64,000 nucleotides of DNA from the NCBI GenBank assembly GCA_021159005.1, contig JAGGSN010000187.1, positions 6,972 through 70,971 of the forward strand. The letters are read 5' to 3'. Below the pieces are notes generated by a model. The model had not been told where the DNA came from. It ran no database searches and worked only from the letters and a program-made list of their open reading frames with translations. Both the position numbers and the translations under genes were made by a program. This document shows positions 4,546 through 47,004 of the stretch, one piece after another. Each line of letters opens with the position of its first letter. Within the stretch, counting starts at the first letter, position 1. The stretch comes from Candidatus Zixiibacteriota bacterium (lineage in GTDB: Bacteria > Zixibacteria > MSB-5A5 > UBA10806 > 4484-95).

Positions 4546-6894
4546 ATGAATTCTCATGCACTTGAAGTACTGGAGTTTGATCGGATAGTTGAAAAACTCC
4601 ATGGATTATGCTGGAGTATTCCGGCTAAAAGATACCTTATTGAACCTACCATTAACTCTGATTGGATTGAACATTCTCTCGATTGCTTAGCGGAGATGGT
4701 TGATGTATACAAATCCGATGGCGGTCCTCCCACATTGGTTTTTGATGATATAGATATGATGTTGGAAAAAACAGCGGCTGAAGGTGTTGTGCTTGAACCG
4801 TCAGAATTGATTAAAACGGCAAATTTATATAATGTTGTTATGGGCTTTAAACAACTAAATAAAAAATATGCTAATATAGGCAGAATTTGTGAAAAATTGA
4901 CATATAGCGATGAGATTACCGCTGGAATCAACCAGGCAATTTTGCCGCCCAATGAAATTAAAGACAACGCTACGCCCGAACTGAAAAACATCCGCCGGCA
5001 AATAAGACAAACCAGACAGCGGCTCGAATCGAAATATAATTCCTATCTCGAATCTGATTATGCCAAATACCTCTCCGATAATGTCGTTACCGTAAGAGAC
5101 GGGCGTTTTGTTCTTCCGGTAAGGGAAGGCGATAAAAACCGCATACAAGGCATTGTGCACGATAGATCATCCACTGGCGCCACATTTTTTGTCGAACCGC
5201 TCGATGCTGTCGAATACAACAACAAATACCGCGAATTATTAGCCGCTGAAAAACAAGAAATTTTCCGCATTCTCAGAACCTTAACAGATCTTGTCCTCGA
5301 AAGCATCGATTCTATTAAAAGCAATATTAAAATCCTTGTCGAATTGGATATTTATTCGGCAAAAGCAAGGTTGGCAATAAAGCTTAAATGCAGCCGCCCC
5401 AAAATCAACGATGAAAGCTATTTCGATATTAAACGAGGCTTCCATCCCTTGCTGCGCTGGCGCGATATACAAAACGGTAATGATGCCTTAGTCCCGCTTG
5501 ATATCGAGCTTGGTAAAGAATTTACAACGCTGGTAATAACCGGTCCCAACACCGGCGGCAAGACTGTCGCCTTAAAAACGGTCGGTCTTGTCTGCCTGAT
5601 GGCGCAATCCGGCATGTTTATTCCTGCGGCTGAGGGTTCATCCGTACCGATTTTTAAAAATATATTCGCCGATATAGGCGATGAGCAATCGCTTGAATCA
5701 TCGCTTTCGACATTTTCGGCACATCTCGCCAATATCAAAACTGCGCTGAGCGAGGCTGCTCATGAATGCCTCGTGCTCTTAGATGAAATCGGCGCCGGCA
5801 CCGATCCCGATGAGGGCGCGGCGCTGGGGCAAGCTATTATAGAAAAGCTAACCGAACAAAATATCCTCTCGATAGTAACCACACATCACGGCAAACTCAA
5901 AACGCTGGCTATTAACATCGAGGGCGTTCAAAACGGTTCGCTCGATTTCGACAGCCGCAACATGAAGCCGACATACCGCTTCAGGCTGGGAACGCCCGGC
6001 CTTTCCTATGCCATCGAAACCGCAGTTAAAATCGGCTTGGATAAATCAATTACCGAACGGGCTGAATCGCTAATCGACCGCTCGGAAAGAAAACTGGCGC
6101 GTATTATTAGCGAACTTTCGGAAAAACTTCAGGCAACAGATGAAACTTTAGTCGAGGCGGAAAATAAAAGACTATCGTATGAAGCATTGTCGAATATTTA
6201 TAAAGAAAAACTCGATAATGTCCAGCAAGAACAAAAGCGTATAAAAAAGGAAGCTCTTCAAGAAGCCGAAAAGATGGTTTACAAACTTAAAGGCGAGATA
6301 ACCGACCTTATTGATGAGGCGAAAAAATCTGACAAGAAAGTAGAAGCCTTTCGCGCCGCCAAACATCAGGCTCAGGAGCAGATTCAAAACCTTAATGAAA
6401 AAATTAGGCAATTCGAACCGCCTGTTAATCAAGCGGCGGCTGATGGAACCGAAGGCGAAAAAGTGTATCTCCCCGACTTGAAAGCAATCGGCGAAATTGT
6501 CGAAAAACCCGAACCCAGCGGCAAGGTGCGAGTGCGCATTGGCAATGTGATTCTGCATACTGAGATGCGAAAGCTTTTCAAATCATCCGAACAGGGTGAA
6601 GCAAAAGCGCCGATAACTCATACCAATCCTTTTGTTAATGTTGACCCGTCAATGGAAATCGATTTGAGAGGCATGACATTCGATGAAGCTCAACCGGTGC
6701 TCGATAAATACCTCGAGGATGTATACCAGGCTCATCTTGATAACGTAACCGTAATCCATGGCAAAGGCACTGGCGTCTTAAGAATCAAGGTGCAGGATTA
6801 CCTTAAAAGACATTCCAAGGTAAAATCATTCCGGCTTGGCAATTGGAATGAAGGCTCATTCGGCGTAACGATAGTCGAGATTGTAAAGGACTGA
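4546..6894 (+). CDS. mutS2: endonuclease MutS2
   Basis: GPNTGGKTV Walker A, DEIGAGTDP, long coiled-coil, C-terminal Smr domain (VIHGKGTGVLR); start placed at MNSHALEVLEF. Confidence 0.85.
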   Translation: MNSHALEVLEFDRIVEKLHGLCWSIPAKRYLIEPTINSDWIEHSLDCLAEMVDVYKSDGGPPTLVFDDIDMMLEKTAAEGVVLEPSELIKTANLYNVVMGFKQLNKKYANIGRICEKLTYSDEITAGINQAILPPNEIKDNATPELKNIRRQIRQTRQRLESKYNSYLESDYAKYLSDNVVTVRDGRFVLPVREGDKNRIQGIVHDRSSTGATFFVEPLDAVEYNNKYRELLAAEKQEIFRILRTLTDLVLESIDSIKSNIKILVELDIYSAKARLAIKLKCSRPKINDESYFDIKRGFHPLLRWRDIQNGNDALVPLDIELGKEFTTLVITGPNTGGKTVALKTVGLVCLMAQSGMFIPAAEGSSVPIFKNIFADIGDEQSLESSLSTFSAHLANIKTALSEAAHECLVLLDEIGAGTDPDEGAALGQAIIEKLTEQNILSIVTTHHGKLKTLAINIEGVQNGSLDFDSRNMKPTYRFRLGTPGLSYAIETAVKIGLDKSITERAESLIDRSERKLARIISELSEKLQATDETLVEAENKRLSYEALSNIYKEKLDNVQQEQKRIKKEALQEAEKMVYKLKGEITDLIDEAKKSDKKVEAFRAAKHQAQEQIQNLNEKIRQFEPPVNQAAADGTEGEKVYLPDLKAIGEIVEKPEPSGKVRVRIGNVILHTEMRKLFKSSEQGEAKAPITHTNPFVNVDPSMEIDLRGMTFDEAQPVLDKYLEDVYQAHLDNVTVIHGKGTGVLRIKVQDYLKRHSKVKSFRLGNWNEGSFGVTIVEIVKD

Positions 6895-6896
6895 TT

Positions 6897-8651
6897 ATGG
6901 CTGGCCCAATACCGGAAAACATTGTCGAAAAAATAAAAAATGACACCGATATCCTCGACTTGATTTCAGAATATGTTACGCTTAAAAAAGCCGGCAAAAA
7001 TTATGTCGGTTTATGTCCGTTCCACAATGAGAAAACGCCGTCGTTTACTGTTTCGCCCGATAAGGGATTCTTCCATTGTTTCGGCTGTAAAGAATCAGGC
7101 AATGCCATAGGCTTTATCATGCGTCATGAAAGCCTGGATTTCCCGGAAGCCTTGAGATTCTTAGCCAAGCGCGCCGGTATCGCGATTCCCGAAAAAGGTT
7201 CCGTTGACTCCATCGCGACCAAACTTTACCAGGCGATTGAATACGCCCAAAGCTTCTATGTGAAGCATCTTAAAAACTCGACCGCCTATGAATATATTAA
7301 ATCGCGCGGCATAAATGATGATGTGATTAAAGAGTTATGGGTTGGTTTTGCGCCTCCCGGCTGGGATAATCTGTATAAAGAGATTTTAAAAGATAAATTG
7401 TCGCCGGAGGTCTTTGAAAAAGCAGGCCTGCTGGTGAAACGTGAAAAACAACCGGGTTATTACGATAAATTCCGCAACCGGTTGATGTTTCCTATATACA
7501 GCCTTTCCGGCCGCTCTATCGGTTTTGGCGGGCGCGCATTAAACGATGAAGAAGGGCCTAAATATCTAAACTCGCCGGAGACTGCTATATATCATAAAGG
7601 GTCTGTGCTGTATGGTCTAAACTGGTCTAAAAATTCAATCCGTCAATCTACTAAAGCTGTTATTGCCGAGGGCTATTTCGATTACATCTCATTATATCAA
7701 GCTGGCATAAAAAATATAGTTGCCGTATCAGGCACCGGCTTTACCGCCAATCAGGCTAATATGCTGGCGCGTTTTAGTGGTGAGGTTATTCTCCTATATG
7801 ATGCCGATTCGGCAGGCCTAAAAGCCACTTACCGGGCAGTTGAGGTTCTCTACAATGCAGGTCTTGAACCTAAGATTGTCAGGCTGCCCGAGGGTTCCGA
7901 CCCCGACAGCTTTATCGTCGAGCATGGCTCTGAAAAGCTTGCTATGTTGATTGATTCTGCCAAAAGCTATCTCGAGTTTGTAAGCGATTCGCTTCCCGAT
8001 AAATTTGTCCGGCTATCAATATCGCATCAGGAGAAACTTATCAAGTCATTAGCGGAAACTGCCGCCGGCATTGATGATAGATTAAAGCATGAATTATTTG
8101 TGCGTAAAGCCATTGAAATATTCGATCTCCCGCTGTCTGCAGAAGCTAAATTTCATAAACGGGGAGACGTCCAACAATCAAGAAGTAAGCAAACCGAACG
8201 GCTTGGCCGCGCTAAATTTGAGATTACATATCTTGGGTTAATAATGTCGCATCCCGAGTTTATTGATGAAAGTCTAAAAGTTATCAAGGAGGATAATTTT
8301 CAAGATTCTTTAAACAGAAGAATTTATGAAAAATTGAATATTATTGACATAAACAATCAGCCTGTCGGCGGACACGGCTTTTCAGTCGGCGATTTCCTTG
8401 AGCATTTTACAGATAAAAATCTCAGACAAAGATTAACCGAGATAATTATCAATGAAACTGCGGGAGCGCCGCCGGAGATGCTTTTTGATGAATATATGGC
8501 AAATTTTAAAAAGTTTATAGTAGCCGACCGTTTGGGCAAACTAAGAATCAAATTGGCCAATGCTGAAAAGGAGGGTAAAATCGAAGAATCAGAAAAAATT
8601 TACAGGGAATTTCAAGATCTTCAGAATACCGCTAACCAGGAGAGGATATAA
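6897..8651 (+). CDS. dnaG: DNA primase
   Basis: [11 protein letters not shown]...FHCFGC zinc ribbon, TOPRIM EGYFD...LYDADSAG. Confidence 0.9.
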
Positions 8652-10123
8652 TGGTAGAAGGGGAAAATTCAGGGTTGCCAGATTTTGACCGTGGATTATC
8701 ATTAGATAATGAAGGCAATGCGGCGAATGGCAGTGAGAATTCAAGTGATGTTAGTATACGCCGGGAAGTAGATGCCTCTGATGCGGGAGGCGATACTACT
8801 TGGGTATATTTTAAAGACCTTGGCAGGTTCAAAATTCTTACCAGGGAACAGGAAGTAGCTGTTGCTCGTCAGATAGAACAACATAAAATACACATCAAAG
8901 AGATAATATTTTCTTCATTAGCTGTCCTTGAAAAAATGATTGAGTGTCAGGACAAGCTTATCAATAAAGAAATCCGGCTTGAGGATATCGTTTCGCCGGA
9001 AACCTGCCGCTGGTTTGCTCCCGAAAACATCAAACGGGAAAAGCTGAAAGTTTTAAATCGCTTGAAAAAGATTAAGAAAATCATCAGCAATTTTGACAGG
9101 CCATTGGGAGATTACTCTCAAGAGAATCTTAAGGATGAGCTCAAATTACGCATTCAGTTGCGTAAAAAACTAATGAATGAAATCGAGAAATTCAATTTCA
9201 ACCTTGAGTTTTTAGATAACCTTATGTATGTATTTAAAAAAAGAACTTCCGGAGGCAGAAGATTTCACCGCCCGCAAAACAACCTGCCCGAGTTGAAAAA
9301 TAATGATCCTTGCGGATATTTATTGGCCGAGGAATTGCCTGTTGATGAACTTTCAAGATTAAAAAAGAAATTGCGCTTTCTCGAAAGAGAGTTGGAAGCT
9401 GCCAAAAAAATAATGATTGAAGCCAACATGCGCTTGGTAATTTCAATTGCCCGAAAATATATTGGCAGGGGCATGGAGTTTATGGACTTAGTACAAGAAG
9501 GCAATTCTGGCTTAGTTAAAGCTGTCGATAAATTCGATTATACAAAGGGCTTCAAATTCGGCACTTACGCTTCATGGTGGATACGTCAGGCTATCACCAG
9601 ATCATTAGCCGAACAGGCCAAAACTATCCGTACGCCAATGTATCTAAATAGCCAGTATGGCAGAGTGGCTAAAGTTTCGCAAAACCTGTTCCAGAAACTC
9701 GGACGCAAACCGAATGTCAAGGAAATATCAAAACTTTCAGGCTTTTCGGTAGACAAAGTCTCTGATATCCTGCAGATGATACCCCAAACGGTCTCGCTTT
9801 CGAAACCGCTTGGCGATGATGAGGAAAACCAGATATCAAATCTGATTGCCGACCCGCAATTCTCGACAACTTCGGGCAAAGCGTCGTTTGTATATCTTCA
9901 GGACCAAATAGAAAAAACGCTAAACTCATTGACTGTCCGTGAGGAGGAAATCATCAGGCTGCGTTTCGGTATGAATGACGGTATGCCGCGCACTCTCGAG
10001 GAGGTCGGTTTGATATTTAATCTGACACGCGAACGCATCCGCCAAATTGAGGCCAAAGCGCTAAAGAAGCTGCGCCATCGCACTCGTTCCGATAAACTGA
10101 GAAAATGTGTTGATTTGCTGTGA
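8651..10123 (+). CDS. rpoD: RNA polymerase sigma factor RpoD (sigma70)
   Basis: region 2 [37 protein letters not shown], region 4 [18 protein letters not shown]; follows dnaG. Confidence 0.9.
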
Positions 10124-10355
10124 TTGATTGCTTTGCGTTGTCAGGCTGCCTAAACAGCTGAATAATCTGTTATGACAGACCGGAAAAATCGGATACTTTA
10201 TTTTGCCGCTTTTTGACGTGTCTTTCTATCTCTTTATGATACAGCATGTTGAAAATTCTAAAATTCTATAAAAATCGCTATATTTAACTTGCATTTTTTC
10301 ATTTGTTAATTATCTTAAAACCTTATCCGTTTTAGAGAAACGGTGTTTTATAGTT

Positions 10356-11672
10356 ATGTTTGAACAGTTGACTGAAAGACTTGAATCGGTATTCAAAAAG
10401 ATTACCGGACGCGGCATCCTTAACGAAAAGGATGTCAAGGAAGCAATGCGGGAAATCCGCATGGCTCTTCTTGAGGCTGATGTCAATTACAAGGTCGCCA
10501 AAAAGCTAATTGTCAACATACAGGAACGCGCGGTCGGGCAAGAGGTTGCCAAATCGATAAAACCCGGTCAGCAGGTTGTAAAAATTGTCAGCGATGAGCT
10601 AACCAAGCTTCTCGGCGAACAAAATGCTCCTCTGAATACAGCTTCCCAGCCGCCGACAATCATCATGATAATAGGCCTTCATGGCGGCGGTAAAACAACG
10701 CTCGCCGGAAAGCTTGCCAAACTGCTTGGCTCGCGCGGCAAACATCCGCTTTTAGTGGCCGCTGATATTCATCGACCGGCAGCCAAAAAACAACTTGAGG
10801 TGCTGGCCAAATCAATTAATATGCCGTACTACACAAGCGATTCCAATGCTCCCGGAATATGCCTTGAGGCTGTAAATCACGCGAAGGAAAAGTTGTACGA
10901 TACTGTTATTCTTGATACCGCCGGACGTTTGCAAATCGATGATGATTTAATGGCTGAGCTTGCAGATATAAAAACTAAGGTGAATCCCGCAGAGGTGTTG
11001 TTTGTGGCGGATGCAATGACCGGTCAGGAAGCGGTAAATGTCGCTTCCTCGTTCAACGAGAAAATCGGCATTACCGGTGTTGCCCTAACCAAACTGGATG
11101 GCGATGCCCGCGGCGGCGCGGCATTATCTATTAAATCGGTTCTGGATGTGCCGATTAAATTCGTCGGTATTGGTGAGAAACTTGATGCAATTGAGGAATT
11201 TCACCCCGAACGAATGGCCTCCCGGATTCTGGGTATGGGCGATATTATAACCTTAGTTGAAAAAGCCCAGCAGAACGTAGATATCGAAAAAGCTAAAAAA
11301 CTCGAACAAAAGCTTCGCAAACAGGAATTTACTTTCGAGGATTTCCTTGACCAGTTAAAGCAGGTCAAGAAAATGGGACCGCTGGAGTCGCTTCTGGAAA
11401 TGGTTCCGGGCATGGGCGGAAAGCTGAAAGGGCTTTCCATTGATGATAAGGCATTGCCCCGAATCGAGGCGATTATTTGTTCGATGACTGTTCAGGAACG
11501 CCGTAATCCGTCAATAATTAACGGCTCAAGAAGAAAAAGAATTGCGCGCGGCAGCGGAACATCTGTACATGATATTAATGTTCTATTAAAGCAATTTACG
11601 CAGATGCGGAAAATGATGAAGAATTTTTCAAAGTTTAATTTCAAAGGTTTTCCGAAAGGGTTTCCGATATAA
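10356..11672 (+). CDS. ffh: signal recognition particle protein Ffh
   Basis: GLHGGGKTT, DTAGR, TKLDGDARGG, Met-rich M domain. Confidence 0.9.
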   Translation: MFEQLTERLESVFKKITGRGILNEKDVKEAMREIRMALLEADVNYKVAKKLIVNIQERAVGQEVAKSIKPGQQVVKIVSDELTKLLGEQNAPLNTASQPPTIIMIIGLHGGGKTTLAGKLAKLLGSRGKHPLLVAADIHRPAAKKQLEVLAKSINMPYYTSDSNAPGICLEAVNHAKEKLYDTVILDTAGRLQIDDDLMAELADIKTKVNPAEVLFVADAMTGQEAVNVASSFNEKIGITGVALTKLDGDARGGAALSIKSVLDVPIKFVGIGEKLDAIEEFHPERMASRILGMGDIITLVEKAQQNVDIEKAKKLEQKLRKQEFTFEDFLDQLKQVKKMGPLESLLEMVPGMGGKLKGLSIDDKALPRIEAIICSMTVQERRNPSIINGSRRKRIARGSGTSVHDINVLLKQFTQMRKMMKNFSKFNFKGFPKGFPI

Positions 11673-15060: not shown

Positions 15061-16404
15061 TTGGCTAAGGATTTAACACAAGGACCATTAGCAAGTCAAA
15101 TAGTCAGGCTGGCTATACCTGGCTTATTATCTCTTTTAGGGATAACGGTCAATCATTTTGTCGATGGCATCTGGGTCGGCAGACTTGGACCTGAAGCACT
15201 GGCGGCAATTACGCCATCATCATTTATAGTATGGATACTCTATTCGATTGTTGACATTATGCCGATAGGTTTGGTGGCAATAATCTCGCGCTATTATGGC
15301 GAGAAAAATCTAACCCAAGCATCGGAAACATCGCAGAAAGTTATTCAATTAGTATTCTTTATATCAATAATATTATCAGTCTGCGGTTGGCTGTTTGCTA
15401 AAAACGCCATGGAGCTTGTTGGGGTATCGGCCGAGGTTGTCAGGCTTGGCAGCATTTATTTGATGATAATCTCGACCTGTCTGCCGGCGATATTCTTAGT
15501 CGAGACTTATTCGAGCATATTCCGGGCAGTTGGCGATACTATCGTGCCTATGAGGCTTATTTTAACGGCAATTATCGCAAATATAATACTTGATCCGCTG
15601 TTGATATTTGGAATCGGTCCCTTCCCCGAAATGGGGATAGCTGGCGCGGCATTAGCTACTGCGATTGGTTATTATTTATCATTGGGTTTGGCATTTGTTG
15701 AATTAAACAGAGGCAAGCTACCTTTCAAAATTATTAAAGCAAGACCGTTGCCTTTTGATTTCCCCCTTCTCTGGCGGATTGCTAAGATAGGACTTCCAAT
15801 TTCAATATCAGGAATTGGCTTTTCTATAGTATATTTGGCGTTGGTAAGAATTGCCGCTCCATTCGGTGATTATGTAGTAGCCTCATTCAGGGTTGGTCAA
15901 TTTATCGAGGCTGTTTCCTTTATGATATGTTTCGGTTTTGGGCAGGCGACAGCGAGCATGATAGGACAGAATCTCGGCGCCAAGCTTACCGACCGAGCGG
16001 AAAAATCAGCGCAAACGGCAATTGGCATTGTTTCCGGCATTACCATAGCGTTTTCATTCATATTTTTCTTTGCCGCCAAGCCGTTAGTCTCAATATTCTC
16101 AAGCGATATTCAGGTGGCAACTGCGGCGGCTTTATATCTGAAAATCATAGCCATCTCGCAATTGTTTATGGGATTAGAGATCGTTTATGAGGGCGCTTTC
16201 TCAGGGGCGGGCGATACATTGCCCCCGATGCTGATTTCAATTATTGGCACTACCTTGCGAATCCCATTGGCAATTATCTTCGTTGGACCGTTAAATTGGG
16301 GATACCAGGGAATGTACTGGGCGATCACAATTTCGACGGTTTTAAAAGGAGTTAGTATCTTTATCTGGTTTAAGCTTGGCAGATGGAAACTGAAGCAGGT
16401 ATAG
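15061..16404 (+). CDS. MATE family efflux transporter
   Basis: 447 aa, 12 TM-like segments, duplicated halves typical of MATE/NorM. Confidence 0.75.
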   Translation: MAKDLTQGPLASQIVRLAIPGLLSLLGITVNHFVDGIWVGRLGPEALAAITPSSFIVWILYSIVDIMPIGLVAIISRYYGEKNLTQASETSQKVIQLVFFISIILSVCGWLFAKNAMELVGVSAEVVRLGSIYLMIISTCLPAIFLVETYSSIFRAVGDTIVPMRLILTAIIANIILDPLLIFGIGPFPEMGIAGAALATAIGYYLSLGLAFVELNRGKLPFKIIKARPLPFDFPLLWRIAKIGLPISISGIGFSIVYLALVRIAAPFGDYVVASFRVGQFIEAVSFMICFGFGQATASMIGQNLGAKLTDRAEKSAQTAIGIVSGITIAFSFIFFFAAKPLVSIFSSDIQVATAAALYLKIIAISQLFMGLEIVYEGAFSGAGDTLPPMLISIIGTTLRIPLAIIFVGPLNWGYQGMYWAITISTVLKGVSIFIWFKLGRWKLKQV

Positions 16405-16413
16405 AAATTTTAA

Positions 16414-16440
16414 TGGTTGGCGTACGTCCTCGTCTGCCAA
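16414..16440. repeat. family-A hairpin repeat (consensus GGCTGGTGTACGTCCTCGTGCACCAGC), diverged copy
   Basis: ggttggcgtacgtcctcgtctgccaac. Confidence 0.6.
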
Positions 16441-16555
16441 CTTAAGAAATAAAGAATAGCCAAGACCACAAGTCCGCCTCAGTCGGATTGACCTACAAAA
16501 TACTAAACGTTCCCCTTTTATTGAATATATCGATATAATCATTTGTTAACAGTCT

Positions 16556-16600
16556 GAGGGCGTATGCAATACGAGGGCGTATGCAATACGCCCCTACGCG
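16556..16600. repeat. family-B hairpin repeat (GAGGGCGTATGCAATACGCCCCTACGCG), 1.5 tandem copies
   Basis: GGGCGTAT-gca-ATACGCCC perfect 8-bp stem. Confidence 0.75.
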
Positions 16601-16612
16601 AACGGTGTTTCA

Positions 16613-16667
16613 GTGGCTGGTGTACGTCCTCCTTTATAGTGGCTGGTGTACGTCCTCGTGCACCAAC
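16613..16667. repeat. family-A repeats: truncated copy then full copy
   Basis: ggctggtgtacgtcctcc…ggctggtgtacgtcctcgtgcaccaac followed by caataagtt as at 28039. Confidence 0.75.
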
Positions 16668-16676
16668 AATAAGTTC

Positions 16677-16746
16677 AGGGCGTATGCAATACGCCTCTAC
16701 GCGCAACGGCATTTCAGTGGTTGGTGTATGTTCTTGTGCACCAACT
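16677..16746. repeat. composite B + A unit (B 16677-16704, A-variant 16718-16746)
   Basis: same B-spacer-cagtgg-A arrangement as 16574-16667 and 27970-28038. Confidence 0.7.
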
Positions 16747-16830
16747 TCAGTGGTTCATGTGGATGGCATCCGCCATAGGCGGGCTCGTCTGCCAACAACG
16801 ACCCTTGACTGGGCTTATCCGCCTTACCGG

Positions 16831-16866
16831 GCAAACAAAAAGGCAGGTCTCGGAAAGACCTGCCCT
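16831..16866 (-). terminator. intrinsic terminator for the - strand gene 16895-17260
   Basis: revcomp GGGCAGGTCTttccgAGACCTGCC followed by TTTTTGTTT. Confidence 0.6.
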
Positions 16867-16894
16867 ACATAGTTTCCATCCTAATACCTGAAAA

Positions 16895-26052: not shown

Positions 26053-26421
26053 CTACCGTTTCGATTTCTTACTCGATGTGTCCTTCTCGCTGTTTTTCTT
26101 TTCGATTTTTTTAACCTTCACCGGCATTTTCTGCTCAATTTTTGGTTTGGGCTTGGGTGGCGCAACCTTCTTGACAGCCGGCGCTTTGCGTTTCTGATAA
26201 TCATCGTTAATTCCATCGCCGTCTTTGTCGATAAACTTATCTTTCACAGGTAAGGCTGCAGCTTTCGATTTCAGTTTTACAGCCGGCGTTTTCTTATCAA
26301 TCTTCTTTTCGATTTTGGTCGAATCTTTTTTGCTTTTCTTAGACACTTTCTGAATAGCAAAAGCCTCCGCACCGCTCATAGCTATGAACAGCGCCAACGT
26401 CAATATAATTACTTTTTTCAT
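26053..26421 (-). CDS. secreted Lys-rich protein with thrombospondin-type-3-like Ca-binding motif
   Basis: signal peptide MKKVIILTLALFIAMSGAEA; DKDGDGINDD; KKSKK low-complexity; start ATG overlaps upstream gene stop (ATGA). Confidence 0.55.
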   Translation of the reverse strand: MKKVIILTLALFIAMSGAEAFAIQKVSKKSKKDSTKIEKKIDKKTPAVKLKSKAAALPVKDKFIDKDGDGINDDYQKRKAPAVKKVAPPKPKPKIEQKMPVKVKKIEKKNSEKDTSSKKSKR

Positions 26422-27782
26422 TTCCTGCCTCTTTCCTTAGAATATTTCGACCCGGATTTGGAGCTTCCGCTTTTTAATTTGTCGCTGGTTTTAGAACGTA
26501 CAGGTTCGGCTTTTTTAGACTCGTTTTTCTTGATATTGTCTGACTTTTTATTATCTGTTTTTTTTACTGAAGTTTGTCCCGAATTCGGTTTTTTCTGCTT
26601 CTGCTTTTTATTTATAATAATATCTTTATCGTCAGAATTCAAGGATTTACTGCTTTTTTCCCGTTTAATCTGATATTCTCTATCTTTTTGGGGATAATTG
26701 TGAATATTATCCTTTTTGTTTTTTTCTTTAAATATTAATCCGCTATTTTGCTTATTAATCTTTTCCGTGTAGGTTCCATCATTAAAAATCCTATCCGAAT
26801 ACTTTTTCTGCACTCTTGATGGCGGAGTATGAAGCGGCCTGGTATGTTTAACTCGATATTTTTCCGCTTCCCTGACAAAACCGGGATCGTTGCGGTGCTT
26901 CTCCTGTTTAAATCTCCAATTTTTCATATTCGAGCGGCCATAATCGAAATCCCGGAATTTTCGTTTAATCTTGGCATCGACATAATATCGCTGACCTCTT
27001 GTTACATAAACATAATCCTGCCAGCAGGGATAGCCATGATAATAAATCCATACCCAGTGACGGCCAATATATATTTCCGGTATAAGAATTGGCGCGATGC
27101 CGAAATAACAGCCGTCAATCCAGATCTCGGCGCCCGGGTAATCACAGCCAATCCAGATACTGCCAATATAATACGGGTCATAACGCCAGTAGCGGTACCA
27201 ACTGTGATGCCGGTAGCGGTTATCGATAAAAAACATCGTCGAGGCGGAAATATAAGACCCATTCCTAACAATTCTATTATTTAGGTCGTTTACGAAAACC
27301 GCCATCTCGCCGCGCATCGTATGAACGAAATCATCATAGTAGCTGTCCCAGTTGCCATACTCAAAATATTCATAACGCATGAATTCGGGAGGGTCAATCC
27401 GGTAGGGGCTGGCAACGGCGTAAATATATTCCTTGCCCTTAGGTCCGGTTACCTCAAGCCGGTAATCATCATAAGCATCGGGGATACGGTAAACCTCTTC
27501 GCCGCGAATAAAACAATCGCTGTTGTAATCGGATGGGAAAAGAAGGCTGACATTGCCGGCTGGATCGATATCATAAATCACCGCATAGCAATCCTCCGAA
27601 GCGCGAAAATAAACAGCCACATCTTCGCCGAAATAATATGTCGCTCCATCGCTTTTATTAACCCAGACATCAATCTCAAGGTTGTCAACCCTGCTGATGC
27701 CGTGTTTCTGGTCGGCGGAGGCGGCAACTGTCATAATTGCGGCCAGCGCTATTACCATTAAATTTCTCAAATGCTTTTTCAT
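26418..27782 (-). CDS. secreted DUF4384/PEGA domain protein with Trp/Tyr-rich region and Lys-rich C-terminal tail
   Basis: signal peptide MKKHLRNLMVIALAAIMTVAASA; PGAEIWIDGCYFGIAP PEGA-like motif; true start at 27782 (the track ORF extends upstream only by reading through repeats). Confidence 0.6.
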   Translation of the reverse strand: MKKHLRNLMVIALAAIMTVAASADQKHGISRVDNLEIDVWVNKSDGATYYFGEDVAVYFRASEDCYAVIYDIDPAGNVSLLFPSDYNSDCFIRGEEVYRIPDAYDDYRLEVTGPKGKEYIYAVASPYRIDPPEFMRYEYFEYGNWDSYYDDFVHTMRGEMAVFVNDLNNRIVRNGSYISASTMFFIDNRYRHHSWYRYWRYDPYYIGSIWIGCDYPGAEIWIDGCYFGIAPILIPEIYIGRHWVWIYYHGYPCWQDYVYVTRGQRYYVDAKIKRKFRDFDYGRSNMKNWRFKQEKHRNDPGFVREAEKYRVKHTRPLHTPPSRVQKKYSDRIFNDGTYTEKINKQNSGLIFKEKNKKDNIHNYPQKDREYQIKREKSSKSLNSDDKDIIINKKQKQKKPNSGQTSVKKTDNKKSDNIKKNESKKAEPVRSKTSDKLKSGSSKSGSKYSKERGRK

Positions 27783-27811
27783 ATCAACCACCTTGTTTAA
27801 TATTATTGTAG

Positions 27812-27857
27812 GTCGGGTTCTCCGCCTAAGGCGGACCGTAGCGGGGAGAAACCCGAC
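27812..27857. repeat. family-D hairpin repeat containing CCGCCTAAGGCGG core
   Basis: ggtcgggttctccgcctaaggcggaccgtagcggggagaaacccgac. Confidence 0.6.
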
Positions 27858-27888
27858 GCCGTTTGCTTTATTATGGTTTGAGGCATGC

Positions 27889-27999
27889 GAGGGCGTATGC
27901 AATACGCCCCTACGCGGAATAGCATGCGAGGGCGTATGCAATACGCCCCTACGCGGAATAATAGCATGCGAGGGCGTATGCAATACGGCCCCTACGCGG
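27889..27999. repeat. three tandem family-B repeats (39-42 bp period), no unique spacers
   Basis: gcatgcgagggcgtatgcaatacgcccctacgcggaata x3. Confidence 0.8.
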
Positions 28000-28011
28000 A
28001 ACAGTAATTGT

Positions 28012-28038
28012 GGCTGGTGTACGTCCTCGTGCACCAGC
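28012..28038. repeat. family-A hairpin repeat
   Basis: ggctggtgtacgtcctcgtgcaccagc then caataagtt. Confidence 0.8.
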
Positions 28039-28053
28039 AATAAGTTATTGTAA

Positions 28054-28091
28054 GTCGGGTTCCGACCCAACGCAGTAGGGGAGAAACCCGA
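28054..28091. repeat. family-D hairpin repeat
   Basis: gtcgggttccgacccaacgcagtaggggagaaacccgat. Confidence 0.55.
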
Positions 28092-28219
28092 TACAACCAC
28101 TTCATTTAACCCGATGCCGCTTGATTTGTTTTCATCTTTCATCATCGCTGCCTTTTTCTACAGCTGGTATCCGCCATTGACGGACACCAACCATATTACC
28201 CTATAAGAAATTATGCCCC

Positions 28220-29047
28220 TTAATTTACATCCAAGTCATTGCCGGCATGTTTCTGCATATCCGGCCTGATTTTCAATTCTCTATTGTCTTCATCAATTTG
28301 ATAAGCCCAGTAAAACTCCATCGCGTCAGGATTATTATCAAAATCGGTTATCCATATTCGGGCGTAATGCCACTCATCGAAATGCCATAGCTTCAGCATG
28401 TACATATGCCCATCAATAGCCTCGACACTGTTAAAATCCGACCAGCCATCATCGGGAGCATAGCTTACATCATCGAAACCATCGGCATAGCCGAAATCCT
28501 GGATGTAATAATCATCATGACGGACATATATATAGAACGAGTTGTTATAATAGCTAAGGTAAATATCGCAATTGGTATAATCATCATACGGAACTCTTTC
28601 GCCCGCATAAAGATCGAAACCGGTATAATCGTAATAACTGTTTTCGTCATAAGCGTATATAACAGCATTAGCCCCTTCCGGGCGAGGTGTATCATAGGTA
28701 TAATCAGACAACTCTGATTCCTGGCCATCCTCGTCAATAGCGGTTACCGCATAGTAATATGTTTCACCATTATCAACAGCGTTATCAATCCAACTGGTAT
28801 AGTTTGATGATACCTCATTCTGAAAATAAAAGGTATTGTCCGGGCCGTTTGTATTGCGGTAAATAGCATATGTTTTGATATCCAGTTCGCCAACCGCATA
28901 CCAGGCAAGATAAATCGCCTCATCGGCGGTAATTGATGTTAAACCTGTCGGCGCGGCGGGTACGGGATCGACATAAGAAGTGTTTTCCTCACAGCCAACT
29001 ATAATCATGGCTACTAATACTATCATAATGCCCATAAGCTTTTTCAC
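28220..29047 (-). CDS. lipoprotein with fibronectin type III-like domain and Asp/Tyr-rich C-terminal region
   Basis: MKKLMGIMIVLVAMIIVGC lipobox; FN3-like PAAPTGL…YYYAVTAID; DY-rich tail. Confidence 0.55.
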   Translation of the reverse strand: MKKLMGIMIVLVAMIIVGCEENTSYVDPVPAAPTGLTSITADEAIYLAWYAVGELDIKTYAIYRNTNGPDNTFYFQNEVSSNYTSWIDNAVDNGETYYYAVTAIDEDGQESELSDYTYDTPRPEGANAVIYAYDENSYYDYTGFDLYAGERVPYDDYTNCDIYLSYYNNSFYIYVRHDDYYIQDFGYADGFDDVSYAPDDGWSDFNSVEAIDGHMYMLKLWHFDEWHYARIWITDFDNNPDAMEFYWAYQIDEDNRELKIRPDMQKHAGNDLDVN

Positions 29048-29264
29048 TGAAACCTCCTGTTGTTATCGTCTGATAATTAATTAATCAATAATCATGCCAA
29101 AATCGCTAATTCTGTAACATGCAGTCTTTCAGGGAGATATGGTTTTACGTAAAAATGTCGGTTGCTGTTATGCACAATATTTGTTCGTTTGGCAACTATA
29201 GTTGTGCATGGCTATTATTCACATTGCAGGGAAATCCGAGCCGCCTAAACATTTGATTCGGGGT

Positions 29265-29304
29265 TGTGTCAGTTTGCAGTCCGCCTAAGGCGGATGAACT
29301 GACA
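29265..29304. repeat. family-C long hairpin repeat copy 3
   Basis: tgtgtcagtttgcagtccgcctaaggcggatgaactgacaca. Confidence 0.7.
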
Positions 29305-29566
29305 CATATAGCGAAGACAGGAACCACTGCCTGATTCCGGTAATATAAAAGTATCAATGTTGATAGGGAAATATTCCTGACAACGCTTGAATTAATCACT
29401 CCCTGATAATTTTTTAAATTTTGTAAAAACAAAATAATATCAACTTTGTTAATTGTGGTTAGGTTATTCTATATAATTGTGATTCATAGTCTTAAATGGA
29501 ATTATTAATGTTAAGCAATTGGCTTGCCAAACCGATAAAATATTTTAAATGTTTTAAAAAAAGTTC

Positions 29567-29594
29567 TTGACACTCCGATAAGGAGTTTTATATT
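29567..29594 (+). promoter_or_regulatory. putative sigma70 promoter for tRNA-Thr/tuf (TTGACA-16-TATATT)
   Basis: read directly, ~50 nt upstream of tRNA. Confidence 0.45.
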
Positions 29595-29643
29595 GCAAGT
29601 CTGTCATTTAGAGGATGTTCTATTTCTCTATGTGATTAGGTGT

Positions 29644-29716
<73 letters not shown>

Positions 29717-29807
29717 ATTAAACAGAATATGGTTTGCCGAGTGTAGAAATTATTATTGCAGTTCGGTGATTAAATAATGAATTTATGTGGCAGGAGAAGG
29801 ATGACTG

Positions 29808-31016
29808 ATGGCCAAGGAGAAATTTGAGCGAACGAAACCGCATGTGAATGTAGGTACGATAGGTCATGTTGATCATGGCAAGACTACATTAACGGCGGCG
29901 ATGACGATGATATTGGGTCGCAAGGGTCAGGCGGCGGTTCGCGATTTTGATTCGATTGACAATGCTCCGGAGGAGCGTGAGCGCGGCATAACGATAGCGA
30001 CGGCGCATGTTGAGTATGAGACCGATAGGCGTCATTATGCTCATGTTGATTGTCCTGGTCACGCCGATTATGTTAAGAACATGATAACGGGTGCGGCCCA
30101 GATGGATGGCGCGATATTGGTAGTTAGCGCGGCGGATGGTCCGATGCCTCAGACGCGCGAGCATATATTATTGGCACGTCAGGTAGGAGTTCCTTACATA
30201 GTTGTATTCATGAACAAGATAGACCAGGTAGATGATCCTGAGTTATTAGACTTGGTGGAGCTTGAGGTACGGGATTTATTGAGTCAGTATCAATTTCCGG
30301 GTGATGACATTCCGATAATTCGTGGTTCGGCATTAGAGGCTATGAATCGCGGCGCTGATGAGAGCGTACCTTATGATGATCCTGCTTTTAAGTGTGTGCA
30401 TGAGTTGATGGATGCGGTAGACAGCTATATACCGGAGCCGAAGCGTGATATTGACAAGCCGTTTTTATTGCCGATAGAGGATGTATTTTCGATAACGGGT
30501 CGAGGTACGGTAGGAACGGGTCGAGTTGAGCGCGGCAAGATAAAGACCGGTGATCCTGTTGAGCGTGTTGGTGTTAGGGAGACTCGCAAGACGGTAGTAA
30601 CGGGTGTTGAGATGTTTCGGAAGATATTGGATTATGCTCAGGCGGGCGATAATGTAGGTTTGTTATTGCGCGGAGTAGATAAGAATGATCTTGAGCGCGG
30701 CATGGTTTTGGCGGCGCCTGGCAGTATTAAGCCGCACAAGAAGTTTAAGGGAGAGGTATACATTTTGACGAAGGAAGAGGGTGGTCGTCACACGCCGTTT
30801 TTCAATGGTTATCGTCCGCAGTTTTATTTTCGGACGACGGATGTAACAGGTACGGTGAAGCTTCCGGAAGGTGTTGAGATGGTAATGCCTGGTGATAATG
30901 TAACAGTAGAAGGCGAGTTAATAACGCCGATAGCGATGGAGAAAGAGCTTCGTTTTGCTATCCGTGAAGGCGGCCGCACCGTAGGCGCCGGCGTTATTAG
31001 CGAAATAATAGAGTAA
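29808..31016 (+). CDS. tuf: elongation factor Tu (copy 1, tufB-type position)
   Basis: [25 protein letters not shown]; 402 aa; identical to the copy at 45482. Confidence 0.95.
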
Positions 31017-31027
31017 AGAGGTATTCA

Positions 31028-31192
31028 ATGGCTAAAGATAGAAAGCGGCCGATTGTTATACTTGAATGTGTTGAGTGTAAAAATAGAAATTATAATACAA
31101 CTAAAAATAAAAGGAAGCATCCGGAACGAATAGAACATAAAAAGTATTGCCCGACATGCAATAAGCATGTTATGCATAAGGAAACAAGATAA
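31028..31192 (+). CDS. rpmG: 50S ribosomal protein L33
   Basis: [54 protein letters not shown]; below ORF-track size cutoff. Confidence 0.8.
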
Positions 31193-31199
31193 TACTTTT

Positions 31200-31272
31200 A
31201 GGACAGTAGCTCTAATGGTAGAGCGCCGGTCTCCAAAACCGGATGCTGGGGGTTCGAGTCCCTCCTGTCCTG
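31200..31272 (+). tRNA. tRNA-Trp (anticodon CCA)
   Basis: acceptor AGGACAG/CTGTCCT, anticodon loop cTCCAAAa, T-arm GGTTCGAGTCC. Confidence 0.85.
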
Positions 31273-31284
31273 AATGGAGTTTTT

Positions 31285-43332: not shown

Positions 43333-45417
43333 ATGTCAATGAATCTGGAAAAAACAAGAAATATCGGAATTATGGCTCATATTGATGCTGGCAAAACTAC
43401 TACCACAGAGCGTGTGCTCTACTATACGGGTCTGACTCATCGGATAGGAGAAGTCGATGACGGTGCGGCTGTTATGGATTGGATGGACCTCGAAAAAGAA
43501 CGCGGTATTACTATCACATCCGCGGCCACTACTGTTTATTGGAATGATTATCGCCTCAATATAATCGATACGCCCGGTCATGTTGATTTTACTGTTGAAG
43601 TGGAAAGATCGCTCAGAATCCTGGATGGAGCAATTGCTCTTTTCTGCTCCGTCGGTGGAGTCGAACCGCAATCCGAAACTGTCTGGCGTCAGGCGGATAA
43701 ATACAGAGTTCCGCGCATTGCCTATGTTAATAAAATGGATCGTATCGGTGCCGATTTCTTTGGCGCTGTTGATATGATGAAAAAAAGATTAGGTGCCAAT
43801 GCCGTTCCTATTCAGATACCTGTTGGCTCGGGAGATTTGTTTACCGGCATTATTGATGTTATAGAAATGAAGTCCAGGACTTTCGATGAGGAAACGCTTG
43901 GCGCAACTTATTACGATAGCGATGTTCCCGATTCCCTTATGCAGCAAGCCGAAAAAACCCGCGAAGAACTCTTGGAAATCCTCTCCGAATATGATGATAC
44001 GCTGCTGGATAAGTTTGTTAACAATGAACCAATAATGATTCATGAAATAAAAAACGCCCTTCGGAAAGCCACGCTTAAATCAGAAATATTTCCGGTAATG
44101 TGCGGGTCATCTTTTAAAAATAAAGGCGTTCAGAAGATGCTTGATGCAGTAGTTGATTATCTGCCATCCCCTCTCGACCTGCCTCCTGTTATAGGACATA
44201 TTCCGGATACGGAAAAAGAAATAACCAGAAAACCATCTGAAGATGAACCGTTTGCAGGCTTGGTATATAAAATAATTGTCGATCCATACGTCGGAAAACT
44301 CACCTATTTTAGGATTTATTCAGGCAAGATACAAGCAGGTTCTACCATATTTAACGCTACAACCGGCAAAACCGAAAGAGTTTCTCGGCTGCTTCTGATG
44401 CATTCTAATAAGAAAAATGATGTTCGCGAAGCGTGTGCTGGCGACATTGTTGCCGGTATCGGGTTTAAAAATACCGCCACTGGCGATACGATATGTGATA
44501 AAAAGCACCCTATTATCCTCGAGCAAATGAATTTCCCTGATCCGGTAATTTCTATTGCTATCGAACCTAAAACAAAAGCAGACCAGGAGAAGTTAGCTAT
44601 TTCATTATCTCGCTTGGCTGAGGAGGATCCGACATTCAAAGTGAATCAGGATGAAGATACCGGCCAGACAATTATCTCGGGAATGGGAGAACTTCACCTT
44701 GAAATATTAATTGATAGGATGGTTAGGGAATTTAAGGTTTCGGCTAATGTAGGTAAACCACAGGTTGCTTATAAAGAAACCATCTCGAAAATCGCCAAAT
44801 GTGAGGGGAAATTCATCAAACAAACCGGCGGCCGCGGCCAGCATGGTCATGTCAAGTTAAGAATAGAACCATTAGAAACCGGATGTGATTTTGAATTTGC
44901 CAGCGAAGTTACCGGCGGGGAGGTCCCAAAAGAATATATTCCCGCAGTTGAAAAAGGTGTTAGAGAATCCCTTGATAATGGAATTATCGCCGGCTATCCT
45001 ACCGTGGATATCAAAGTTGTGCTTATTGGCGGAAGTTTCCATGATGTCGATTCATCCGAGTTGGCATTCAAAATAGCCGGGGCGATGGCTTTCCAGGATG
45101 GTCTCAGGAAGGCGGCGCCTGTGCTTTTGGAGCCTATAATGGATGTTGAAGTGGTCGTGCCCGAGGAATATCTTGGCGATATTATCGGCGACCTGCAAAC
45201 CAGACGCGGTAAGATCGAGGGAATTGCTCAGCGGCCTGATGCTAAAGTTGTGGCAAGCGAAGTGCCGCTATCCGAAATGTTTGGTTATGCAACTAAACTG
45301 AGGTCGCTTTCTCAGGGAAGGGCAGTATATTCGATGCAGTTTGCGCATTATGCGAAGATGTCTCAGCAGGTAAGTGATAAAATTGTTAAGAAAGTTAAAG
45401 GATATGTTTATCATTAA
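43333..45417 (+). CDS. fusA: elongation factor G
   Basis: [22 protein letters not shown]; start set to [12 protein letters not shown] (track ORF starts earlier at 43276). Confidence 0.9.
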
Positions 45418-45481
45418 ATAGGGACGTTATTTTTATTTTTTAGTGATTTGATAATGGAAAATAAAGTTAAGGAGATGACTG

Positions 45482-46690
45482 ATGGCCAAGGAGAAATTTG
45501 AGCGAACGAAACCGCATGTGAATGTAGGTACGATAGGTCATGTTGATCATGGCAAGACTACATTAACGGCGGCGATGACGATGATATTGGGTCGCAAGGG
45601 TCAGGCGGCGGTTCGCGATTTTGATTCGATTGACAATGCTCCGGAGGAGCGTGAGCGCGGCATAACGATAGCGACGGCGCATGTTGAGTATGAGACCGAT
45701 AGGCGTCATTATGCTCATGTTGATTGTCCTGGTCACGCCGATTATGTTAAGAACATGATAACGGGTGCGGCCCAGATGGATGGCGCGATATTGGTAGTTA
45801 GCGCGGCGGATGGTCCGATGCCTCAGACGCGCGAGCATATATTATTGGCACGTCAGGTAGGAGTTCCTTACATAGTTGTATTCATGAACAAGATAGACCA
45901 GGTAGATGATCCTGAGTTATTAGACTTGGTGGAGCTTGAGGTACGGGATTTATTGAGTCAGTATCAATTTCCGGGTGATGACATTCCGATAATTCGTGGT
46001 TCGGCATTAGAGGCTATGAATCGCGGCGCTGATGAGAGCGTACCTTATGATGATCCTGCTTTTAAGTGTGTGCATGAGTTGATGGATGCGGTAGACAGCT
46101 ATATACCGGAGCCGAAGCGTGATATTGACAAGCCGTTTTTATTGCCGATAGAGGATGTATTTTCGATAACGGGTCGAGGTACGGTAGGAACGGGTCGAGT
46201 TGAGCGCGGCAAGATAAAGACCGGTGATCCTGTTGAGCGTGTTGGTGTTAGGGAGACTCGCAAGACGGTAGTAACGGGTGTTGAGATGTTTCGGAAGATA
46301 TTGGATTATGCTCAGGCGGGCGATAATGTAGGTTTGTTATTGCGCGGAGTAGATAAGAATGATCTTGAGCGCGGCATGGTTTTGGCGGCGCCTGGCAGTA
46401 TTAAGCCGCACAAGAAGTTTAAGGGAGAGGTATACATTTTGACGAAGGAAGAGGGTGGTCGTCACACGCCGTTTTTCAATGGTTATCGTCCGCAGTTTTA
46501 TTTTCGGACGACGGATGTAACAGGTACGGTGAAGCTTCCGGAAGGTGTTGAGATGGTAATGCCTGGTGATAATGTAACAGTAGAAGGCGAGTTAATAACG
46601 CCGATAGCGATGGAGAAAGAGCTTCGTTTTGCTATCCGTGAAGGCGGCCGCACCGTAGGCGCCGGCGTTATTAGCGAAATAATAGAGTAA
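45482..46690 (+). CDS. tuf: elongation factor Tu (copy 2, tufA-type position)
   Basis: protein identical to copy 1; nucleotide identity extends from ~10 nt upstream of ATG to the stop. Confidence 0.95.
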
Positions 46691-46695
46691 TTAAA

Positions 46696-47004
46696 ATGGA
46701 TAGCCAGAAAATAAGAATAAGACTCAAGGCGTATGATCATGTCTCCCTTGATAGGTCTACTTTAGAAATTGTTAATACTGTAAATCGAACCGGAGCAAAA
46801 ATTATCGGACCGGTGCCGTTGCCGACTAAGAGGACTGTTTATACTGTTCTGCGTTCTCCGCATGTTGACAAGAAATCGCGGGAACAGTTTGAGACCAGGA
46901 TTCATAAAAGGTTGATTGATATTTATGATTCCAATCCTCAAACAGTCGACTCATTGATGAGGCTTGATTTGCCGGCCGGTGTTGATGTTGAAATTAAAGT
47001 CTAA
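46696..47004 (+). CDS. rpsJ: 30S ribosomal protein S10
   Basis: [12 protein letters not shown]…PLPT conserved. Confidence 0.95.

Follow-up and report, generated by a model that had tools for sequence, protein, structure and literature searches.

Two identical tuf genes under concerted evolution, with a codon usage of their own, in a member of the Zixibacteria

Duplicated genes for elongation factor Tu (EF-Tu), named tufA and tufB, have reportedly been kept alike by long-lasting concerted evolution (Lathe and Bork in 2001 and Abdulkarim and Hughes in 1996 are said to have described this), and the two copies of E. coli differ at about 13 nt. EF-Tu is several-fold more abundant than ribosomal proteins. 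Classical, translationally selected codon bias is reportedly the subject of work by Ikemura, by Sharp and Li and by Sharp et al. (2005), which is said to include the S statistic for C- over U-ending codons. Here we consider a pair of tuf genes in a 64,000-nt stretch of DNA from a Candidatus Zixiibacteriota bacterium (assembly GCA_021159005.1, contig JAGGSN010000187.1, positions 6,972 to 70,971), which as a whole is called the window below. The pair is like known tufA/tufB duplicates in having two full-length genes in the same two contexts, near-identical paralogues and a homogenised tract limited to coding sequence; it is unlike the E. coli pair in being perfectly identical (0/1,217 nt). The explanation that best covers the locus as a whole, and to which we give slightly better than an even chance, combines a canonical EF-Tu pair, gene conversion between its members, vertical inheritance of tuf and tRNA-level selection on its codons.

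The two genes and the tract that they share lie as follows.

29800..31016, + strand: homogenised (gene-conversion) tract of copy 1, an exact match to 45474-46690
29808..31016, + strand: tuf copy 1, in the tufB-type context, for a 402-aa EF-Tu with atypical codons
45474..46690, + strand: homogenised (gene-conversion) tract of copy 2
45482..46690, + strand: tuf copy 2, closing the str operon in the tufA-type context, with the same nucleotides as copy 1

The tracts align over 1,217 nt with 0 mismatches and constitute the single long exact direct repeat of the window, which begins 8 nt 5' of the ATG and ends on the final base of the TAA stop. Both open reading frames are intact and encode the same 402-aa protein, which is recognized as EF-Tu over residues 1-402 by the TIGR00485 equivalog model (742 bits, cutoff 522). 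Outside the repeat, the 200-nt flanks of the two copies are only 24-28% identical, the level expected at random. An earlier note, prepared from the letters of the window, had described nucleotide-identical tuf copies with flanks that diverge directly outside them, and both descriptions are borne out; its estimate that identity runs from about 10 nt upstream to the stop is right at the stop end and slightly long at the start, which was measured at 8 nt before the ATG.

Comparison with relatives shows how such identity arises. The two paralogues within a genome differ at 0 nt in the window, 0 nt in L085/L086, 1 nt in L091/L092 (which lie 15.6 kb from each other on a single 919-kb contig) and 4 nt in L089/L096, whereas orthologous tuf genes differ between genomes at 200-295 nt. 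Because paralogues are this close and orthologues this far apart in at least four lineages, the genes evolve in concert, and these data show that the window pair has been homogenised by recurrent intrachromosomal gene conversion, as had been suggested before. In the relatives the identity tract starts -3 or -5 nt from the ATG and again ends at the stop, which shows that conversion is confined to the coding sequence as the only homologous DNA. The four mismatches of L089 (10001-11209) and L096 (181-1389), both on contig JAOZPT010000014.1 of GCA_029932605.1, all fall in the last 24 nt of the gene, at nt 1186, 1192, 1193 and 1198, and produce three C-terminal amino-acid differences; this 3' patch looks like unconverted sequence beyond a conversion tract that ended short of the 3' end. 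As to mechanism, work in Salmonella is said to be the source for RecA-dependent non-reciprocal recombination as the route of tuf conversion, and by analogy the same route would serve here. Wang and Chen (2018; PMC6053082) list 6 phyla and 29 orders in which tuf evolves in concert. Neither Zixibacteria nor the FCB group is on that list, so the present pair is a new member of a known tuf pattern.

What sets these genes apart is their codon usage. Each copy encodes 27 Ile residues with ATA 19, ATT 7 and ATC 1, and 27 Thr residues with ACG 19, ACA 3, ACC 3 and ACT 2; Lys is AAG 19 and AAA 3, and Glu is GAG 28 and GAA 5. Ala is GCG at 15 of 28 positions, Pro is CCG 14 and CCT 9 with CCA and CCC both 0, Val includes GTA 20 and GTG 4, Arg includes CGG 3, and the codons AGA, TCA, TCC, TCT, CTA, CTC, CTG, GTC and GGG do not occur. 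Across 30 flanking genes (nusG, the ribosomal-protein genes, rpoA/B/C and fusA), the corresponding fractions are ATA 0.25, ACG 0.14, AAG 0.26 and GAG 0.26. The amino-acid-weighted total-variation distance between tuf and these 30 genes is.356-.357 against a null of.114 +/-.014 (z = 17), whereas by the same measure each of the 30 other genes scores between z = -1.3 and z = +2.6. The effective number of codons (ENC) is 37.7 for tuf; it is 52.1 when the ribosomal-protein genes are pooled and 54.0 in a set of 28 background genes. A codon model was derived solely from four tuf orthologues in other genomes, and no open reading frame of the window except tuf has a positive log-likelihood ratio under it (+0.29 per codon; mean -0.39, standard deviation 0.18). 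No other gene with tuf-like usage was found in the 64-kb window or in the 10 kb beyond its left end (ENA scaffold, L094). Third positions in tuf are G.35, T.35, A.17 and C.12, against.19,.33,.28 and.19 in the neighbours, and GC is.49 in tuf and.42 in the window. The C-ending fractions of the two-fold boxes are low as well (TTC.14, TAC.18, AAC.22), and the C-ending log-odds ratio of tuf against the flanks is -0.45. The anomaly is thus real and tuf-specific within the sequence examined. The earlier note had counted about 20 ATA codons and found Thr mostly ACG, Lys mostly AAG and the neighbours different; the counts agree with it, the comparison with ribosomal-protein genes that it called for gave the distance and ENC values above, and ATA, ACG and AAG are not the preferred codons of the approximately 30 ribosomal-protein and RNA polymerase genes. 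An antisense open reading frame at 29889-30164 (- strand) was considered as a cause and ruled out, since the bias is even along the whole gene.

A sharp boundary of this kind, with composition atypical in one gene only, is what would result if a foreign allele had replaced tuf by horizontal transfer and the second copy had then been converted to match, and the earlier note had put this forward. The relatives tell otherwise. The nearest EF-Tu sequences (84-100% identity) come from Zixibacteria or the FCB group and the next phyla reach at most 78%. NCBI lists an identical protein as EF-Tu from a "candidate division Zixibacteria bacterium" metagenome-assembled genome, and the nearest homologues beyond it share 84-96% identity. 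Identity to the window EF-Tu falls from L085 (90) through L088 (89) and L089 and L091/92 (both about 87) to L005 (84), and rpoB, rpoC, fusA and essentially every ribosomal protein among 24 neighbours rank the relatives likewise. Within the clade, the neighbour-joining tree of EF-Tu is (L005,(L089,((L092,L088),(L085,window)))), and a neighbour-joining tree of eight concatenated flanking proteins (rpoC+rpsL+rpsG+fusA+rpsJ+rplC+rplD+rplB) has the identical topology, congruent with vertical descent. Both copies also occupy canonical operon sites, and no mobile-element genes were seen at either. These results show that tuf was inherited vertically, and we regard its replacement by a foreign allele as highly improbable.

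The codon preference was inherited with the gene. In tuf versus flanks, L085/L086 have ATA.70/.28, ACG.80/.14, AAG.87/.38 and GAG.97/.38; L089 has ATA.64/.34, ACG.56/.17, AAG 1.0/.36 and GAG 1.0/.51; L088 has ATA.32/.14, ACG.64/.24 and AAG.90/.35; and L005 has ATA.50/.30, ACG.87/.25 and AAG.96/.56. The tuf-only contrast is weaker in L091/92, and the bias is near full strength in four of six lineages. It is not phylum-wide, because the tuf gene (9311-10510) of L006, a Zixibacteria metagenome-assembled genome (MAG) with a GC of.60, has no special bias (distance.099; GAG.44/.54 and ACG.39/.36 in tuf versus flanks). At conserved amino-acid sites, 36-47% of tuf codons differ between the window and its relatives, and the synonymous differences amount to 77-88% of the saturation expected from the gene's codon frequencies, compared with 82-96% for the flanks. 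A lagging ancestral composition is ruled out by this turnover, which almost equals that of the flanks, and a bias kept clade-wide at about 80% synonymous saturation shows no amelioration. Since most synonymous positions have been replaced without loss of the preference, the bias is a maintained equilibrium and not the fading imprint of a donor. The tuf-only preference is thereby shown to be old, shared by the lineage and actively maintained in spite of near-saturated synonymous turnover.

The surroundings of the two copies, all on the + strand, are the following.

29567..29594, + strand: sigma70-like promoter (TTGACA, 16-nt spacer, TATATT; 11/12 matches), 5' of tRNA-Thr and tuf copy 1; a consensus match with a presumed function
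29644..29716, + strand: tRNA-Thr (anticodon GGT), directly 5' of tuf copy 1
31028..31192, + strand: rpmG (L33), directly 3' of copy 1 with no terminator between, and with ordinary codons including AGA
31199..31273, + strand: tRNA-Trp (CCA), followed by secE, nusG, rplKAJL and rpoBC
43333..45417, + strand: fusA (EF-G), directly 5' of copy 2, with ordinary codons (ENC 52.6)
46696..47004, + strand: rpsJ, first gene of the S10 operon, 5 nt past the tuf stop with no terminator, and with ordinary codons

The order around copy 1, tRNA-Thr-tuf-rpmG-tRNA-Trp-secE-nusG, is the canonical tufB-type position, and that around copy 2, rpsL-rpsG-fusA-tuf-rpsJ followed by the S10, spc and alpha operons, is the canonical tufA-type position. 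The same two contexts recur in L085/L086, L091/L092 and L089/L096. No terminator-like site was found 3' of either tuf copy, and Rfam models gave no RNA elements around either copy besides the two tRNAs. With no other tRNA in 29047-29643, tRNA-Thr(GGT) is the sole tRNA before copy 1. Relatives L086 and L025 have all four members of a cluster before tuf, Thr(TGT)-Tyr(GTA)-Gly(TCC)-Thr(GGT), for which the thrU-tyrU-glyT-thrT-tufB operon of E. coli is the counterpart, and L091 retains Gly(TCC) about 1.9 kb upstream. Because these relatives keep the cluster or part of it, the tRNA cluster upstream of tufB has shrunk or moved in the window lineage, and its tRNA-Thr(GGT) is a remnant.

An exact 1.2-kb repeat is difficult for short-read assemblers, and the earlier note had raised a collapsed, duplicated or chimeric contig as a further source of the anomaly. 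The same two-copy structure is present in contig Ga0186713_136564 of JGI metagenome 3300016457 and in scaffold_53 of ENA ERZ23499350, which is 99.99% identical to the window, although these assemblies sample the same population and are only partly independent. Relatives give independent support: P0034, an EF-Tu 87% identical to that of the window, occurs twice at the 15.6-kb spacing on the 919-kb contig, which to judge by its name (ctg97345l) comes from long reads; P0032 and P0035 are both on one NCBI contig of GCA_029932605.1; and P0017 is present in both tuf contexts. A collapsed repeat would leave one copy and not two, the gene order around both copies is the canonical bacterial one, and, with direct repeats, the observed order is the sole linear path that includes the 14.5-kb middle segment. 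Because of the relatives' single contigs, the copy number and this sole path, the artefact is rejected as extremely improbable, though a short-read consensus with 0 differences could hide a few true differences between the paralogues.

The tuf repeat does mislead assemblers on short contigs. L090 (ENA ERZ23491059 scaffold_214705, 1-2106), a short scaffold assembled from a different sample, runs from the fusA 3' end through the spacer between fusA and tuf into tuf-rpmG-secE, so that a tufA-type upstream side meets a tufB-type downstream side. The spacer matches that of L089 over the 159 nt upstream of the ATG. Misjoining at the 1.2-kb repeat during assembly most likely produced a chimeric scaffold here; a true recombinant is less likely. 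Another weak spot of assembly lies elsewhere in the window, where ENA scaffold_53 (L002) has two 100-N gaps (6083-6182 and 8054-8153, corresponding to about 26105 and about 27922-27959 of the window) in or beside a PEGA/DUF4384 gene (26418-28145). Because of these gaps, the called length of the PEGA/DUF4384 protein varies between assemblies (454, 574 and 575 aa), and this variation reflects a region that is hard to assemble and not a biological difference.

What maintains the tuf preference is best approached through the codon boxes that it affects. With six Zixibacteria genomes pooled and tuf compared with 24 neighbouring genes, G/(G+A) in Lys/Glu/Gln is.91 in tuf against.33-.53, NCG in the Thr/Ala/Pro/Ser boxes is.60 against.13-.37, ATA among Ile codons is.53 against.15-.39, and AGA+AGG among Arg codons is.06 against.21-.59. 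There is no shift in C/(C+T) for Phe/Tyr/Asn/Asp/His (.31 against.20-.45), and two-fold pyrimidine families are normally served by one tRNA each.

This pattern bears on gene-specific mutation or repair bias, whether GC-biased gene conversion between the copies or, in a gene transcribed very heavily, a strand asymmetry tied to transcription, with the non-template strand going from C to T and from A to G. The idea has some appeal in that tuf alone converts and tuf alone is odd, and in that its third positions are rich in G and T and its GC content exceeds that of the window. However, third-position C drops from.19 to.12 while G climbs from.19 to.35, and GC at third positions falls in Val and Gly. 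A to G change does not account for the Val, Gly, Leu and Arg counts (GTA over GTG; GGG and CTG absent; CGG rare), and Ile goes to ATA rather than to ATT. Furthermore, rpmG and rpsJ, which are probably co-transcribed with tuf, are normal in their codons. The bias follows the codon box and not the base. Because it is box-specific, GC-biased gene conversion (third-position C falls instead of rising) and a simple mutational skew are excluded, the transcription-associated G+T skew being discarded as the main cause on the grounds of the avoided GTG/GGG/CTG/CGG, the excess of ATA over ATT and the normal rpmG/rpsJ. A mutational or repair-based cause as a class is quite improbable.

Selection could also act on the mRNA itself, through removal of A-runs, on which RNA polymerase and ribosomes may slip or err and which may offer AU-rich sites to RNases, through a stabler message or through avoidance of the motifs of endoribonuclease toxins. 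The tuf message contains no AAAA (14.3 expected) and 5 AAA (37 expected; z = -6.8), its AA dinucleotides are depleted relative to recoding with flank usage (z = -7), and its local folding is stabler than that of flank-recoded versions (z = -3.1). Yet the loss of A-runs follows automatically from the use of AAG and GAG, and ATA, GTA and TTA are enriched, contrary to a rule against A or AU. That the folding energy is lower than in flank-recoded versions is to be expected from the higher GC, and shuffling synonymous codons while leaving the overall usage of tuf intact gives the same energy (z = -0.33), so selection for a specific mRNA structure is unsupported. Avoidance of toxin RNase motifs is likewise unsupported: ACA, the MazF site, occurs 13 times against 14.0 expected, and GCT and TAC are unremarkable. 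We hold selection at the mRNA level to be about as doubtful as a mutational cause.

Of the three explanations for the codons offered in the earlier note, an unusual tRNA pool, in the form of tRNA-level selection, is therefore the best remaining. Selection on tRNA choice is the most economical reading because the bias depends on the box, arises where more than one tRNA species might be chosen and does not extend to the two-fold pyrimidine families. We infer translation-level selection on which tRNA species decodes tuf, the cell's most abundant mRNA. The gene would be steered to G-ending codons for which an "auxiliary" tRNA with C34 may exist (AAG, GAG, CAG, ACG, GCG, CCG, TCG and TTG), since C34 tRNAs would pair with these by Watson-Crick rules, and to ATA, which would be read only by the dedicated tRNA-Ile2 (lysidine-CAU). 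It would be steered as well to the classical optima GGT, CGT/CGC and GTA/GTT, and codons read by U34 (AAA, GAA, CAA, ACA, GCA, CCA, TCA and AGA) would be avoided. Conversion would then spread each favoured synonymous change to both copies. C34 tRNAs form a variable auxiliary set that is co-gained and co-lost among bacteria (PMC4041420), and synonymous changes in Salmonella tuf carry a fitness cost of 0.2-4.2e-4 per codon per generation (PMC4786093).

Several observations weigh against selection on tRNA choice. The shift of ribosomal-protein genes from background is weakly anti-correlated with that of tuf (r = -0.26), and rplL, the gene of the most abundant ribosomal protein, is unbiased (G/(G+A).33, NCG.14). 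The preference for C-ending codons in Phe/Tyr/Asn/Ile, the universal mark of translational selection, is absent or reversed in tuf. The window tuf avoids G-ending Val, Gly, Leu(CTN) and Arg codons, of which L085 and L089 make partial use, with more GTG, GGG and CGG, and decoding by C34 is an imperfect fit for that reason. The only tRNA genes in the window are tRNA-Thr(GGT) and tRNA-Trp(CCA), so that the tRNA choice is inferred from codons. The highly expressed genes compared with tuf were nusG, the ribosomal-protein genes, rpoA/B/C and fusA. An Akashi-type accuracy test was only marginal, with a Mantel-Haenszel odds ratio of 1.27 (Z 1.98) from orthologues that are non-independent, and it is not used as evidence. 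The silence of the ribosomal-protein genes may be explained by a steeply non-linear selection combined with the much higher abundance of EF-Tu, or alternatively by a demand distinct to tuf, such as synthesis during starvation, limiting bulk tRNAs or independence from U34 modification.

The same silence is central to another reading, in which ATA, ACG, AAG and GAG are genome-wide optimal codons of a slow grower, with selection so weak that it is visible only in the most highly expressed gene; further very abundant genes outside the window, such as groEL, dnaK and those for porins, would then look like tuf. The very strong bias of tuf, the part of its preference that is classical (GGT, CGT/CGC, GTA/GTT, CCG and CAG), ribosomal-protein genes nearly unbiased relative to background (ENC 52 versus 54), as in an organism under weak selection, and the measurable per-codon selection in Salmonella tuf all suit it. 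On the other hand, ribosomal-protein genes are nearly indistinguishable from background in their codons, and the partial shift that it predicts is absent in about 27 of them, in rplL and in fusA. Because a partial shift would be expected in rplL, its lack there weakens selection in proportion to expression. For GAG, GCG and TCG the ribosomal-protein genes shift opposite to tuf; rpoA, rpoB and rpoC are, likewise, weakly anti-correlated with the tuf shift, and fusA stands at about 0.1. No second gene of tuf-like usage appeared in the sequence scanned or in the relatives' loci. A genome-wide optimum of this sort is unlikely, although it is the rival to selection on tRNA choice that we take most seriously.

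A bolder version of selection on tRNA choice would give tuf a private codon dialect, with EF-Tu made through auxiliary C34 tRNAs and the lysidine tRNA-Ile2, away from the U34/G34 tRNAs on which the bulk of the proteome, ribosomal proteins included, depends. This would amount to gene-specific partitioning of the tRNA pool, convergent in one Glassbacteria MAG, one Gemmatimonadota MAG and several other uncultured lineages. We offer it as a speculation with a rather small chance of being right. If it is, EF-Tu output would be insulated from competition for tRNAs, amino-acid starvation, loss of U34 modification and anticodon nucleases, and the partitioning of tRNA pools by gene would be a phenomenon distinct from expression-linked codon bias.

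The wider distribution of the pattern was viewed in approximately 65 other bacterial tuf loci across phyla, a by-product of an EF-Tu scan of genome contigs that was swamped by universal peptide patterns and yielded two Zixibacteria loci. In this set, the shift of tuf relative to its flanks grades from classical to G-ending. The classical pattern (C-ending codons up; NCG and ATA down) is that of fast growers in culture, and it was seen in cultured Clostridia, Bacteroidota, Helicobacter and Stenotrophomonas. The G-ending pattern, mostly in uncultured organisms, is found in Zixibacteria, Glassbacteria (L025), Gemmatimonadota (L046), several Gamma- and Betaproteobacteria and Acidobacteriota, and its extreme comprises Zixibacteria and the MAGs L025 and L046. 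Across the loci, the NCG shift rises with the Lys/Glu/Gln-G shift (rho.57) and falls as the C-ending shift increases (rho -.55). The distance of tuf from its flanks is.09-.25 at most loci, about.356 in the window and.370 in L025, so the window tuf is an extreme yet not unique case. No gene but tuf had such usage at any of the G-ending loci examined. Enrichment of NCG, AAG and GAG, and sometimes ATA, that is specific to tuf was noted in L025, L046, L036, L074, L054, L076, L041, L044 and L063, and tuf of Dokdonella has ACG at.96 against.32 in its flanks. A literature search returned nothing directly relevant on Zixibacteria codon usage or on ATA as a preferred codon of highly expressed genes.

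Away from tuf, the window contains a GC-rich (about.54) intergenic stretch of short repeated units at 16400-16880. One unit, the hairpin-forming motif GGGCGTATGCAATACGCC(C/T)CTACGCG, is present at least 3 times and another, GTGG(C/T)TGGTGTA(C/T)GT(C/T)CT...CCAAC, at least 4 times; they resemble repetitive extragenic palindromic (REP) or miniature inverted-repeat transposable (MITE) elements. Rfam gave no match above noise in this stretch (best E-value 0.14), and a 102-aa open reading frame at 16564-16872 is probably spurious.

The identical tuf pair is ordinary, textbook biology extended to a candidate phylum, and the tuf-only, selection-maintained codon dialect with its preference for ATA is real and, as a variant of codon bias, moderately surprising. 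Genes for EF-Tu and ribosomal proteins are routinely pooled as a highly expressed reference when the codon adaptation index is computed, when the strength of selection is estimated and when growth rates are predicted from the codons of MAGs; in the window and several other uncultured lineages, the strong tuf bias is unrelated or opposite to that of ribosomal-protein genes. The locus also serves as a warning that atypical codon usage is not evidence of horizontal transfer. If selection on tRNA species does act on this one gene, it would provide a natural system for asking what synonymous selection optimises in slow growers, with speed, robustness to starvation and independence from U34 modification as candidates.

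Set beside classical translational selection, tuf of the window is alike in that a strong bias marks the gene of the most abundant protein, with GGT, CGT/CGC, GTA/GTT, CCG and CAG favoured and AGA, AGG, GGG and CTA avoided. The highly expressed genes of E. coli favour and avoid this same set of codons. It is unlike classical selection in that ribosomal-protein genes do not share its bias and that no preference for C-ending codons is seen in Phe/Tyr/Asn/Ile. Its strongest bias, moreover, is in the NNA/G families of Lys/Glu/Gln, families that are usually weakly biased (PMC5800062), and it favours the normally avoided ATA.

With regard to tRNA sets, auxiliary C34 tRNAs generally go with high GC, and the window has 42% GC. 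Higgs and Ran (2008) are said to have treated alternative tRNA and codon-usage states. The NNG codons of tuf match the Watson-Crick decoding of the auxiliary C34 states described by Wald and Margalit in 2014 (PMC4041420); those models, like that of Higgs and Ran, concern genome-wide states, while here a single gene in a 42% GC genome is affected. A likeness to codon-biased stress translation, with its modification-tunable transcripts, can be drawn as pure analogy. Anticodon nucleases and loss of modification usually strike the tRNAs with xm5s2U34, and in M. tuberculosis, according to what Barth et al. (2019) reportedly found, MazF-mt9 cleaves tRNA-Lys(UUU) and so favours AAG-rich mRNAs. By the same token, a tuf message that avoids AAA, GAA and CAA would be independent of the xm5s2U34 tRNAs.

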